Positions 2,008 to 7,472 of a stretch of DNA of 64,000 bases are shown piece after piece; the stretch's first letter is position 1, and every line of letters begins with the position of its first letter. The stretch covers positions 5,465-69,464 of the forward strand of contig CAMMHE010000003.1 of the NCBI GenBank assembly GCA_946496575.1. Reading direction: 5' to 3'. Source of the stretch: an uncultured Clostridium sp. (lineage in GTDB: Bacteria > Bacillota > Clostridia > TANB77 > CAG-508). The notes beneath the pieces were generated by a model. It was given only the letters and a program-made list of their open reading frames with translations. It did not search any database and had not been told where the DNA came from. The translations under genes and the position numbers were made by a program.

Positions 2008-2072
2008 TTAGTCTTTAATTTCTTTTGCTAATTTTCCTATTGCTTTGGTTTCAATTCTAGATACATAAGAAC
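2008..2072 (-). CDS. sigK: sigK 3' segment (encodes ...SYVSRIETKAIGKLAKEIKD*), separated from the 5' segment by the insertion
   Basis: Own translation of the minus strand gives CSYVSRIETKAIGKLAKEIKD*. This continues the sigma-70 region 4.2 helix that is broken at 6822. Confidence 0.85.
2061..2072. repeat. att core copy ATACATAAGAAC (left junction of sigK element)
   Basis: 11/12 identical to 6824..6835 (ATACATAGGAAC). Both lie within the SYV codons of sigK. Confidence 0.8.
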
Positions 2073-2102
2073 ATCATTATGATCAACAAATTTAAAAATT
2101 TA

Positions 2103-3092
2103 TTATCTGAAAACTGCTTCTAATCCACAATTTTGGCTTTTGTCAGAAAAAATTATATCATTTTTTCTTTTTAATGTAACATTTATTGTTGCAGAAATAC
2201 TTTCAAAAATATCTTTTTCCATTTTTCCCTTAACTGGTGCTGAAAGTTTAAGACCTTTATCAAAATTAGAATTTAAGTTTAAATATAAATCACCTTTTTT
2301 TAGGGTTATATTCATAAATTCATTATTAATGTCATATTCCAATAAATTCACATTATTATAGGTTGTAAATCTAAATTCTATATCATCAACAATAAGTACA
2401 CAAATAATACCTCTAAAATTAAGTAATTTAAATGGTATATCAGCTATTGAAAACATAAAACTTGCATTCTGATTACTAAAATTATTGCCTTGACACCATA
2501 TATACGATTTTGGAAAAGAAACACCCCAATCTTTTTCTATATATCCGGAATTGTCAATAAAATTTATTTTTTTATTATTAATGTTTATCTCACCATTTGT
2601 TTTATTTGACATGCTAAGTATAGCATGATTACATTCCATAAATGGAATATATGAAAAAGGCCCCATAATATTAGGAGCAAAAGCATTTGTAGTAATGTTT
2701 TTAAGATTAGAATATTGAATGTCTCCAAAAATATTTAACTTTTGTGAATCATCATTTATGTCTATATGGATTCTACTTTTTGAAAAAAAATTATTTTTGA
2801 TTTTAATGTAAAATGGTGTAAAGTTAAATTTAAAGTCCCCTATATTATAATTCACAAAGTATGAAGAATCATTTGTAATTATTTGTATAAATGCTTTTTG
2901 CTCTTTATTGTTTATATTTATTCCTGGTATAAACGAAATACCTTTTTCATTATTAGTATTTTTAAAATACCAACCTTCAAAATAGTTTTTACCTGAATTT
3001 AAATAATTTTCCCCTTGAAATAAATCAGGATTTTTTATTAAGAAATATTTATTCATATATATATTTTTTGCTATAAATGCAATTTTATTCAA
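2103..3092 (-). CDS. tocopherol-cyclase-like family protein (cargo)
   Basis: N-terminal ...NYFEGWYFKNTN... resembles the FEGWYFK signature of the tocopherol cyclase family. Otherwise unassigned. Confidence 0.4.
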   Translation of the reverse strand: MNKIAFIAKNIYMNKYFLIKNPDLFQGENYLNSGKNYFEGWYFKNTNNEKGISFIPGININNKEQKAFIQIITNDSSYFVNYNIGDFKFNFTPFYIKIKNNFFSKSRIHIDINDDSQKLNIFGDIQYSNLKNITTNAFAPNIMGPFSYIPFMECNHAILSMSNKTNGEININNKKINFIDNSGYIEKDWGVSFPKSYIWCQGNNFSNQNASFMFSIADIPFKLLNFRGIICVLIVDDIEFRFTTYNNVNLLEYDINNEFMNITLKKGDLYLNLNSNFDKGLKLSAPVKGKMEKDIFESISATINVTLKRKNDIIFSDKSQNCGLEAVFR

Positions 3093-3106
3093 ATGATTTC
3101 GTCAAA

Positions 3107-5045: not shown

Positions 5046-5156
5046 ATGAAAGAAGATTTAATTTGTATATATGATGATACTAAAGAAGATTTTGAACAAT
5101 TGTTAATTAATATATATTCTGACTTTATTGAGAATAGTTTAAGAAATTATGAATAA
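5046..5156 (+). CDS. small ORF (36 aa) translationally coupled to the recombinase; candidate accessory/directionality factor
   Basis: RBS agagga, then MKEDLICIYDDTKEDFEQLLINIYSDFIENSLRNYE*. Overlaps the recombinase ATG by 8 nt. Shares a motif with the small ORFs at 23611..23754 and 40709..40813. Confidence 0.5.
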   Translation: MKEDLICIYDDTKEDFEQLLINIYSDFIENSLRNYE

Positions 5157-6732
5157 TATAAATATTTCTAATCCTCAAAATTATAAAGTTGGAATATATA
5201 TTAGATTGTCTAAAGAAGATGACAAGCTCGGTGAATCAGAAAGCGTTTCTAATCAACGCTCTATGCTTGTTCGCTTTGCCGAAAGTAATCATCTTTATAT
5301 TGTATCTGAATATGTTGATGATGGAATAAGTGGTACTACTTTTGATAGACCTTCTTTTAAAAAAATGATAAATGATATTGAAAATAAAAAAATTAATATG
5401 GTTATTACAAAGGACTTATCCAGACTTGGCCGTGATTATATTTGTACTGGTCATTATTTAGAAAAATACTTTCCAGAAAAACGTGTAAGATATATATCTT
5501 TGTTAGATGGAATTGATACTGGAATTGATAGCACTTCAAATGATATAACTCCCTTTAAATCTGTTTTAAATGATATGTATGCAAAAGATATTTCAAATAA
5601 GATTAAAAGTGTAAAACATAATAAACAAGATTTAGGTCTATTTATCGGTGGAAAAGCTCCATTTGGCTACAAATTAGATAAATGTTTTCCTAATAAATTA
5701 TTTATAGATGAAGAGGCAAGACATATAGTTGAAAGAATTTTTAAAGAAGCTATACAAGGTAAATCTTGTAGAAATATAGCTATAAGTTTAAATTCTGATT
5801 CAGTTCCTACACCATCTCAATATGCAATAGCACATGGCACTAAAATAACAAATATAAGCTCTCATTGGTCTTCATCTAGAATAAGAGAAATTCTTTTAAA
5901 TGAAGTATATATTGGAAATATGGTTCAAGGTAGAATGAAAAAAATAAATTATAAATCTAAAAAGAATATTAGGTTACCAAAAGATCAATGGAAGATAATT
6001 ATAGGTACACATGATCCTATTATTGATAAATCAACGTTTTTTAAAGCTAAAGAAATGATTGAAATAAGAAAACAGACTAGAGTAAAAAGACATGATTACT
6101 TATTAAAAGGTTTTGTGTATTGTCATGAGTGTGGTAAAAAATTAGGTTGTTCTCCTCGAAAACTTGCTACAGGTAATGTTTACTATTTTAGATGTAACAC
6201 ATATGCATCTTATGCTCAACTAGGCTATTGCACTCCTCATTCAATTAGAATGGATTATGTAGAAAAAGTTGTAATAGATAAATTAAAAACAATATTACTA
6301 AATTTCAGCAATAAAAATGAAATGATTCGTATTGCTAAACAAAAATTAGATGAACTAGAAAACAATAAATTATATATAGATGATCTTGAAAATTGTAAGA
6401 AAAAACTTTCAAAATTAGTTTTAGATATTGATAATATTTATAATGACAAATTAAATTATGTGATTTCTCAAGATGATTTTACTAGAATTTATGAGAAAAA
6501 AAAATTAGAAAAAGTACAAATTCAAAATAGAATTCTTATGCTAGAATCTTATATAAATAATGATAGTGAAAATAAAGATGAACTTGTAAATAAACTAATA
6601 GATAAATTTAATTTAGATTTTCCAACTAATCGAAAAATTTTAAGTGATTTAATCTATAAAATTGAGATAGATAAAAATAAAAAAGTGTATATTTATTTCA
6701 AATTCAAATCACATGGAAAAATAATAGTTTAA
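5149..6732 (+). CDS. large serine recombinase (SpoIVCA/TnpX-like)
   Basis: VGIYIRLSKEDD...SNQR...DDGISGTTFDRPSF...VITKDLSRLGRD resolvase domain, Cys-rich zinc-ribbon region, C-terminal KIEIDKNKKVYIYF motif. Confidence 0.9.
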   Translation: MNNINISNPQNYKVGIYIRLSKEDDKLGESESVSNQRSMLVRFAESNHLYIVSEYVDDGISGTTFDRPSFKKMINDIENKKINMVITKDLSRLGRDYICTGHYLEKYFPEKRVRYISLLDGIDTGIDSTSNDITPFKSVLNDMYAKDISNKIKSVKHNKQDLGLFIGGKAPFGYKLDKCFPNKLFIDEEARHIVERIFKEAIQGKSCRNIAISLNSDSVPTPSQYAIAHGTKITNISSHWSSSRIREILLNEVYIGNMVQGRMKKINYKSKKNIRLPKDQWKIIIGTHDPIIDKSTFFKAKEMIEIRKQTRVKRHDYLLKGFVYCHECGKKLGCSPRKLATGNVYYFRCNTYASYAQLGYCTPHSIRMDYVEKVVIDKLKTILLNFSNKNEMIRIAKQKLDELENNKLYIDDLENCKKKLSKLVLDIDNIYNDKLNYVISQDDFTRIYEKKKLEKVQIQNRILMLESYINNDSENKDELVNKLIDKFNLDFPTNRKILSDLIYKIEIDKNKKVYIYFKFKSHGKIIV

Positions 6733-6821
6733 AATAAATTGTGTAAGTTAAGAATATAAAACTAAACTTATGCATTTTATTTTTTATTGAAAAAGTTATT
6801 AATTTAGTAATAATAATGTTG

Positions 6822-7472
6822 CTATACATAGGAACGTGAAATTCCTATCATTTGTGCTATTTCATTTTGTGTTTTAGGTTTTTTCCCATTTAATCCAAAT
6901 CGTAATTCAATTATCATCTTTTCCCTATCTTTTAATACTGTTTTTACTTTTTCATATAATTTTTTCACTTTCATTTTTAAGTCTATTATCTCTTCTACAC
7001 TTTTTTCATTTGTTTCTAAAACTTCTTGAAGAGTTACAATATTATCATCTTTATCTTTTCCTATAGGTTCATTTAATGCAACTTCTGCTCCTAGTTTTTT
7101 AGTTGCTCTTAAATGCATTAATATTTCATTGTCTATACACCTTGATACATATGTAGAAAGTCTTGAACCTTTATCTACATCAAAACTATTTATTCCTTTT
7201 ATTAAACCTATTGTTCCTATTGAAATGAGATCATCTTGTTCAACATTTGAGGTACTATATTTTTTTGCCACATGTGCAACTAATCTTAAATTTCTTTCGA
7301 TTAAAAGATTTCTTGCATCATCATCTCCTTGCTTTAGTTTTTCTAAACACTGTTTTTCCTCTTCTGCACTTAATGGTTCAGGAAATAAATTGCTTCCTGA
7401 AATATACCCTACCATAAATACTGCAGAACTAAGGAAACTCCAAAATCCTGCTATGCTTAATGATGATAACAT
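6822..7472 (-). CDS. sigK: sigK 5' segment (pro-sigma-K residues 1-216, ends ...GISRSYV*)
   Basis: Hydrophobic pro-sequence then LFPEPLS..., RNLRLVAHVAKKY, LISIGTIGLIKGI, NEILMHLRATKK, PIGKDKDDN. This pattern is sigma-K, not sigma-E. RBS ggaggtg. Confidence 0.9.
   Translation of the reverse strand: MLSSLSIAGFWSFLSSAVFMVGYISGSNLFPEPLSAEEEKQCLEKLKQGDDDARNLLIERNLRLVAHVAKKYSTSNVEQDDLISIGTIGLIKGINSFDVDKGSRLSTYVSRCIDNEILMHLRATKKLGAEVALNEPIGKDKDDNIVTLQEVLETNEKSVEEIIDLKMKVKKLYEKVKTVLKDREKMIIELRFGLNGKKPKTQNEIAQMIGISRSYV
6824..6835. repeat. att core copy ATACATAGGAAC (right junction of sigK element)
   Basis: Direct repeat of 2061..2072. It contains the stop codon that truncates the sigK 5' segment. 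Confidence 0.8.

Follow-up and report, generated by a model that had tools for sequence, protein, structure and literature searches.

The stretch of DNA described here, 64,000 nucleotides (nt) of contig CAMMHE010000003.1 and referred to below as the window, belongs to an uncultured gut Clostridium of low guanine plus cytosine (GC) content in which the late sporulation sigma-factor gene sigK is interrupted by 4,763 bp. This insertion is probably a small, non-phage member of the skin class of intervening elements, whose own large serine recombinase (LSR) targets a site within the region 4.2 coding sequence of sigK and whose excision restores the gene. At the level of sequence this proposal is supported by the split of sigK, the intact LSR, the attachment (att) cores and the symmetry of attP, the in-frame join of the two gene fragments, the targeting of the same codon in related genomes and the pairing of the LSR with a small open reading frame (ORF). 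From these features we infer excision, its timing, the role of a recombination directionality factor (RDF) and the type of promoter involved.

Interruption and predicted reconstitution of sigK

The features of the interrupted gene are as follows.

2008..2061, minus strand: sigK 3' fragment, 17 codons (SRIETKAIGKLAKEIKD) plus a stop codon
2061..2072: att core at the sigK 3' junction (attR), plus-strand sequence ATACATAAGAAC
6822..7472, minus strand: sigK 5' fragment, 216 codons plus TAG, ending in ...IAQMIGISRSYV before the stop
6824..6835: att core at the sigK 5' junction (attL), plus-strand sequence ATACATAGGAAC, in the sense of sigK GTTCCTATGTAT
7503..7510, minus strand: putative -10-like motif CATATAAT, 31-38 nt 5' of the sigK ATG, resembling sigma-E/sigma-K promoters

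The reading frame of sigK is cut between codons 216 and 217 (nt 648 of 702), within the region 4 DNA-binding helix; given the general architecture of sigma-70 proteins, the cut, SRSYV/SRIE, is taken to lie in helix two of the helix-turn-helix of region 4.2. The 5' fragment has a pro-sequence-like N-terminus; its Pfam matches are Sigma70_r2 and an incomplete Sigma70_r4 (profile positions 4-37 of 50). It reaches 286.7 bits on the NCBIfam SigK equivalog TIGR02846, below the cut-off of 298.65, and 289.8 bits on the SigK subfamily model NF004471 (cut-off 252), while the NCBIfam SigE models stay far under their own cut-offs, so that the fragment is assigned to SigK rather than to SigE.

When the two fragments are joined in silico a SigK of 233 amino acids (aa) results, which passes the TIGR02846 cut-off (307.9 vs 298.65 bits) and covers profile positions 9-226 of 227. 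In a search over one genome per species, with the window species not among the GTDB species representatives, residues 1-233 of the joined protein were 73-90% identical to the uninterrupted SigK of 80 loci from uncultured gut Clostridia. The best of these relatives, at the locus labelled L081, is intact, is 90% identical and reads ...GISRSYVSRIETKAINKLAKEIKD up to its stop codon; its C-terminus (SRIETKAINKLAKEIKD) is matched by the sigK 3' fragment of the window. No second sigK was found within the 64-kb window.

A previous interpretation made from the letters alone, the sequence-only reading, had proposed that a skin-like recombinase element splits sigK in region 4.2, and both ORFs and their in-frame join confirm it. 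The end that it assigned to the 5' ORF (6822) stands, whereas the tail, given as 2008..2060, runs to 2061, the additional T belonging to the shared core. It had also attributed the truncating stop codon to the element end, which agrees with the composition of the TAG at 6824..6822 (the T of the core and two bases of the element). In the integrated state sigK would end 17 codons early, in the helix that recognizes the -35 element, and no functional sigma-K would be produced.

As the source is a metagenome-derived contig, the split might also have arisen as a chimera in which the assembly joined unrelated contigs inside sigK. The probability of this is negligible and the explanation is deemed refuted: four independent metagenome assemblies from different samples contain the identical element with the same junctions and neighbours, a recurrence showing that the arrangement is not an assembly artefact, the same core is present at both junctions, and many genomes have a homologous element at this codon.

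Attachment sites and predicted crossover

The 12-bp repeats that had been noted at the breakpoints behave as att cores. They conform to ATACATA(A/G)GAAC, with identity at 11/12 positions as originally described, and equivalent core positions are 4,763 bp apart. The degenerate 12-mer ATACATARGAAC has two matches in the 64-kb window, one at each junction, against 0.06 expected from shuffled sequences. A core TATGTA/T is common to 16/16 related loci for which both junctions were recovered.

Reconstruction of attP from the element-side halves placed the best dyad centre at the G/T step of TATG/TAT in 14 of these 16 loci, with 11-16 of 20 arm positions matching; attB showed little symmetry. The symmetry of attP is counted as evidence because of this agreement across loci and not for the score of the window element alone. 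Since large serine recombinases cleave at a central dinucleotide, strand exchange is predicted to take place at GT in TATGTAT. This dinucleotide is not palindromic and, by the established mechanism of LSRs, would fix the orientation of the reaction; the sole mismatch between the two 12-mers (C/T) falls outside it.

Recombination of attL with attR would release a circle of 4.76 kb and restore an in-frame sigK of 233 codons. The junctions predicted in silico give an attB that contains ...TTTCACGTTCCTATGTATCTAGAATTGAA... and an attP that contains ...ATAATGATGTTCTTATGTATAGCAACATTATT.... The predicted attB 27-mer TCACGTTCYTATGTATCTAGAATTGAA is present verbatim in 31 metagenome contigs, all with an intact sigK.

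Gene content of the element

Besides the att cores the element contains the following features.

2103..3092, minus strand: cargo gene of the tocopherol cyclase family (Pfam Tocopherol_cycl, E = 5e-19)
3107..4075, minus strand: cargo gene, weakly DUF447_N/flavin-reductase-like (DUF447_N 26.5 bits, cut-off 24; Flavin_Reduct below cut-off)
4220..4978, plus strand: Peptidase_C39_2-like cargo gene (Pfam E = 4e-10) with an N-terminal hydrophobic segment
5016..5023, plus strand: -10-like motif CATATAGT, 23-30 nt 5' of the small ORF, a possible mother-cell promoter
5046..5156, plus strand: acidic ORF of 36 aa, isoelectric point 4.05, sharing 8 nt with the start of the recombinase gene (ATGAATAA)
5149..6732, plus strand: LSR, 527 aa, intact (Pfam Resolvase, Recombinase and Zn_ribbon_recom)

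This content (a recombinase, a coupled 36-aa ORF and three cargo genes) is that anticipated by the sequence-only reading and is borne out by Pfam. The recombinase has the domain composition of an LSR, with PF00239, PF07508 and PF13408 each above cut-off. Its YIRLS21 motif (Ser21) aligns with YERLS of the catalytic domain of TnpX (2mhc), its best PHROG is the integrase family phrog_95 (E = 1e-98), and the gene runs towards the sigK 5' fragment, ending 91 nt from the attL core. The Tocopherol_cycl gene shares its strand with the sigK tail and ends 42 nt ahead of it.

Apart from the integrase no gene of the element matched a PHROG phage family, and the Peptidase_C39_2-like gene matched neither PHROG nor NCBIfam. 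None of the GenBank phage integrases exceeded 32% identity to the recombinase, and the comparison of the element with plasmid DNA gave no meaningful match. An origin from a phage or a plasmid was rejected on these grounds, and the lack of phage-family cargo together with the distance of phage integrases indicates that the element is non-phage, like gin of Bacillus cereus. The prophage-like gene content of the classical skins of B. subtilis, C. tetani and C. perfringens is missing, as it is from gin and from the 2.6-kb skins. Base composition (23.8% GC in the element vs 25-29% in the flanks) gave no useful signal, and in a scan for sigma-70 promoters matches were no commoner than in shuffled sequences.

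Related elements at the same codon of sigK

Oscillospiraceae, Lachnospiraceae and unclassified Clostridia are the hosts of the 80 recombinases nearest to that of the window element (44-79% identity). About 60 of these 80 loci include a sigK tail that starts with SRIE or SRLE, located mostly within ~150 nt of the recombinase stop and, in loci of the window type, at the far end of the element. A sigK 5' fragment is present in 36 of the 80, mostly terminating at residue 216-218, and wherever both junctions could be recovered (16/16 loci) sigK is severed after ...SRSYV.

Two layouts can be distinguished. In type A (the window and the loci L001 and L003-L006) the recombinase converges on the sigK 5' fragment, and in type B, which comprises the majority, it is co-oriented with sigK and directly precedes the 3' fragment. 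Read in the direction of the recombinase, the core next to this gene is ..ATAC/AT.. in type A and ..TATG/TA.. in type B (window 5149..6835 vs L071 6315..7925). An inversion of attP relative to the recombinase gene between the two types would explain the two insertion orientations at one attB.

Elements at this codon measure 1,802 bp in L004, 2,287 bp in L005, 2,334 bp in L003, 2,652 bp in L069 and 3,391 bp in L050; further sizes among the loci with both junctions are 4,646, 4,763 (the window), 6,587, 6,743, 7,144 and up to 9,878 bp. In L004 the element has no genes besides the small ORF and the recombinase. The suggestion that the window element approximates a minimal excision unit has to be abandoned in view of same-codon relatives down to 1,802 bp and of published skins from 2.6 kb. 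As far as can be judged from these genomes, a small sigK element is neither minimal nor rare, and codon 216/217 appears as a further class of site with respect to the experimentally studied elements, yet one that is very common in genomes.

Within the clade of the window recombinase the ratio of nonsynonymous to synonymous substitution rates (dN/dS) is ~0.17. Three species (L004 ~9990..10010, L005 ~10070..10085 and L006 ~10075..10090) have in common one inserted base, CCA(C)GG or GAA(C)GG, directly after the catalytic motif YIRLSKEDxK of the recombinase, and a +1 shift is required for the full protein. The 486 codons past the insertion are open and evolve with a dN/dS of 0.17 (L004 vs L005), the same as in intact pairs, a value that favours a conserved and functional frameshift over decay. 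CGG, the codon at the shift, is rare in low-GC hosts.

The small ORF as a candidate excision factor

All type A loci encode a homologue of the 36-aa ORF ahead of the recombinase. A second group, formed by the small ORFs 5' of type B recombinases, proved homologous to these (hhalign, 36 columns, probability 92%, E = 6.5e-7); its members were missed by a single-sequence jackhmmer search from the 36-aa ORF and a profile-profile comparison was required to relate them. With the combined profile, an ORF ending between -60 and +200 nt from the recombinase start was detected in 75/76 loci with upstream DNA, a test that is partly circular as 27 of the tested sequences had served to build the profile. 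At E < 1e-3 there was no other match across the 160 loci scanned. In a reciprocal check, two abundant family members of 47 aa were located 27 nt 5' of a 525-aa recombinase in 8/8 places inspected, with a sigK 5' fragment ~4 kb upstream in 3/8.

The profile search returned 170 clusters, all annotated as 'hypothetical protein' or unnamed, and no consistent model for the family was found in Pfam, PHROG or NCBIfam. An identity with TnpW (Pfam E = 0.029 in 1/45 sequences) was rejected as a chance match. Judging by its conserved position, the small ORF is a genuine gene, coupled to that of the recombinase, and the pairing can be called obligate. This linkage and the analogy with Skr and GirX make the 36-aa product a probable candidate for the RDF of the system; its size, charge and position fit those of Skr, GirX and CD1234, RDFs being proteins without a common sequence signature. 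In general, RDFs are small element-encoded proteins needed for recombination of attL with attR, and they bind the coiled-coil motif, inserted in the zinc ribbon domain of LSRs, by which directionality is governed.

The recombinase would most likely require the 36-aa acidic protein as its RDF. The two genes would constitute a single operon with translational coupling, preceded by a CATA-type -10 element, which would confine excision to the sporulating mother cell while the spore retains the integrated copy. The sequence CATAT is present 20-30 nt upstream of the small ORF in 7/7 type A loci, within flanking sequence that is not conserved, and has a background frequency of 0.003 per nt; in the GC-richer type B loci CATA occurs between -45 and -12 in 19/25. 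Compared with the consensus of sigma-E/sigma-K mother-cell promoters these features fit, a resemblance that is only suggestive.

In type B a second motif, GGACA(A/G)GCA, is often placed ~20 nt ahead of the CATA -10-like element (L070 9755..9823, L038, L019 and L025), in a region ~20-70 nt upstream of the small ORF where the sequence is otherwise divergent. It resembles the SpoIIID consensus WWRRACAR-Y, and a control of the small-ORF/recombinase operon by SpoIIID plus sigma-E is suggested for type B hosts.

Further split genes in the window

The sporulation protease gene yabG is also split, into parts at 43698..43297 and ~36026..35516, by an interval of 7,313 bp. The corresponding core AGATGGAGACAA (minus strand) is located at plus coordinates 43340..43351 and 36027..36038. 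The N-terminal part ends in ..LHLDGD and the C-terminal part resumes with KNYSQKS...; their join aligns with the NCBIfam YabG model in one stretch (positions 2-276 of 283) with 259 bits vs a cut-off of 270. The interval includes the following genes.

40819..40712, minus strand: homologue of the small ORF, 34 aa
40620..39048, minus strand: first LSR, frameshifted into ORFs of 81 aa and 430 aa
39055..37514, minus strand: second LSR, intact, overlapping the first

The other genes of this element encode an AAA_14/DUF4143 ATPase, a GNAT protein and a DUF402 protein. The frameshift in the first LSR corresponds to one extra base within a stretch rich in A, ATA(A)GAAAAAGG (inserted base in brackets), and could reflect decay of a duplicate, an error of sequencing or expression that is prone to slippage. 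The only yabG-intervening element described so far is yin of C. botulinum V73, reported as unique to that strain.

A third gene, for an M14 peptidoglycan peptidase with PG_binding_1 and Peptidase_M14 domains, is split on the plus strand (window 12210..27460). Its core AGGTGTGGATTT is restricted to 12887..12898 and 26998..27009, 14,111 bp apart, and the two fragments are complementary on the Pfam M14 profile (positions 5-135 and 128-283). Within this interval, away from its edge, the third small-ORF homologue (23754..23611) and the third LSR (23498..21885) of the window are encoded, and in L081 the same gene is cut at the same residue (15960..16676). Taken together, the three split genes suggest that, in uncultured gut Clostridia, recombinases gate sporulation genes far more often than the few model cases imply.

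Just 3' of the third LSR, the window contains a TspO/MBR gene and a Coat_F-domain fragment (profile positions 25-61 of 63) at 20697..21161 and 21256..21432. A TspO/MBR-like gene is also found between the recombinase and the sigK 5' fragment in the 2.3-kb elements of L003 and L005, which makes it a recurring passenger of this recombinase family.

Alternative explanations and points against excision

The occurrence of the same recombinase clade in many hosts, with differing cargo and in both orientations, implies horizontal spread, and two further copies of the module reside in other genes of the window. Large serine recombinases often target conserved genes, and the element may be viewed as a mobile integrative element that uses a conserved part of sigK as its attachment site and would excise to transfer itself or on other signals, the interruption of the gene being a side effect and not a developmental switch. 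This is considered unlikely, given that genes for transfer, replication or phage functions are missing from the element, that at least two of the three window targets (sigK and yabG) are sporulation genes, and that the CATA-type motif upstream of the small ORF matches that upstream of sigK. Moreover, every characterised element splitting sigK, gerE, spsM or yabG excises in sporulation.

Several observations weigh against a switch that restores sigK. All contigs found for the window species carry the integrated form; the scan of metagenome contigs with the attB 27-mer yielded no empty site of the same species, 31/31 coming from other species with 69-80% nucleotide identity, and the exact joined SigK was not found among 15 billion proteins. 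Taken alone, the attP dyad of the window element (14 of 20 arm matches) is reached by ~20% of shuffles. No resemblance of the small ORF to a characterised RDF could be detected, the assignment of the promoter rests on a motif of 5-8 nt in DNA of 24% GC, and some relatives have frameshifted recombinases, indicating that decay occurs in the family.

Some of these points would also be expected if the element were a fixed, non-excising remnant and sigK a permanently split pseudogene in a lineage without sporulation. Integrated copies alone were seen, frameshifted recombinases occur in related elements and in the yabG element of the window, and the genomes of relatives are small (~1.5 Mb, OV788638.1); host-adapted lineages with small genomes often lose sporulation. 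However, neither piece of sigK has a further lesion and the joined protein has 90% identity to that of an intact relative; the element retains an undamaged recombinase (527 aa), an undamaged small ORF and both att cores, and the recombinase clade has a dN/dS of ~0.17. A remnant is considered improbable, and a skin-class element whose excision restores sigK is retained as the probable explanation.

A pilin-like gene downstream of sigK

The neighbouring gene on the 3' side of sigK lies outside the element.

1475..1990, minus strand: host gene, weakly prepilin-like, starting 17 nt past the sigK stop

Its match to the NCBIfam model for a prepilin-peptidase-dependent pilin (E = 1.4e-4) is far under the cut-off. 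Terminator-like sites were found neither between the sigK tail and this gene, nor near the junctions, nor between the same-strand cargo genes (4075..2103) and the sigK tail, so that transcription could enter the pilin-like gene both before and after excision. It had been proposed that this gene is joined to the sigK promoter only after excision. Co-transcription after excision is indeed possible, but exclusivity is not sustained, read-through before excision being equally possible.

In L081 (7400..12300, compared with window 800..9600) sigK is inverted against its O-antigen-ligase-like, pilin-like and RNase HII flanks, and a radical-SAM-like gene separates the pilin-like gene from sigK; to judge from the gene order, this arrangement is a local inversion or rearrangement at an att-bearing gene. 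Capture of the pilin-like gene by the sigK promoter is possible, though it would be neither conserved nor exclusive.

Significance

As one more skin element the insertion in sigK adds little, the phenomenon, the class of recombinase and the small sizes being already published. What is worth following is the conserved small ORF and the three clustered units. It can be tentatively hypothesized, at somewhat less than even chances, that the 36-aa ORF is the first recognised member of a widespread and unannotated RDF family, tied to one LSR clade of gut Clostridia and often translationally coupled to it. Three such units would gate sigK, yabG and the M14 gene, at least two of which act in mother-cell sporulation, within 45 kb, some relatives would have a bare switch of 1.8 kb and a sub-clade would depend on a +1 frameshift. 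If true, this would represent a multi-locus programmed rearrangement comparable to the excisions from nifD, fdxN and hupL in Anabaena heterocysts.

The family would also offer a large natural collection of recombinases for which attB and attP are known and which have a co-encoded candidate excision factor of only 35-50 aa, the cognate excision factor being the current bottleneck for the use of serine integrases as reversible tools in genome engineering (PMC12286644). Cultured hosts in which sporulation-linked excision may be followed include Anaerocolumna xylanovorans, Blautia wexlerae, Lacrimispora indolis and Marasmitruncus massiliensis.

Comparison with known systems

Skin elements have been reported from 15 genomes, with sizes of 2.6-48 kb and 2-67 genes (bioRxiv 10.1101/2022.02.25.481979). 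As in these, sigK is present as two ORFs in the window, and the element between them, with 4.76 kb and five genes, is within the reported size range. According to the same study (Galperin et al., 2022) no other genes are common among the elements and their orientation varies, and the arrangement that it terms usual is that of type B (bioRxiv 10.1101/2022.02.25.481979).

The element of Clostridioides difficile, skin(Cd), measures 14.6 kb and encodes the recombinase CD1231 and the RDF CD1234, a small acidic protein needed for excision, which takes place in the mother cell only (PMC5025042). The window element likewise has a three-domain LSR that converges on the sigK 5' fragment and conserved 12-bp motifs at both junctions. 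The two differ in the organization of the excision module: CD1234 (72 aa) is encoded three genes away from the recombinase under its own sigma-E/SpoIIID promoter while CD1231 is constitutive, whereas the small ORF of the window overlaps its recombinase. The pro-sequence-like N-terminus of the window SigK is another presumable difference, the C. difficile protein not being known to have a pro-sequence. The insertion site differs as well, since skin(Cd), skin(Ct) and PhiS63 are inserted mid-gene near nt 427 with the core GTAATGAAAT (PMC3442830) and the window element at nt 648 of 702.

In the 48-kb skin(Bs) of B. subtilis, excision depends on SpoIVCA and Skr, and skr, an ORF of 64 aa overlapping the start of spoIVCA, is co-transcribed with this gene from a sigma-E promoter (PMC6957869). 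This layout is the same as that of 5046..5156 and 5149..6732 in the window. Conversely, skin(Bs) is a prophage remnant ten times larger, located at another site of sigK, and no sequence similarity between Skr and the small ORF has been established.

In B. cereus ATCC 10987 the element gin splits gerE and encodes the recombinase GirC and the 42-aa RDF GirX, which has no known motif (PMC5595907). Both gin and the window element are non-phage, and gin has several serine recombinase genes, as does the yabG element of the window; it differs in its target gerE, in its 9-bp core and in that girX does not adjoin girC.

The nearest solved structure to the catalytic domain of the window recombinase is that of TnpX from Tn4451 of Clostridium perfringens (2mhc, E = 2e-25). 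Both enzymes are LSRs of small non-phage elements, although Tn4451 is a mobilisable transposon with many target sites and not a switch that reconstitutes a gene.

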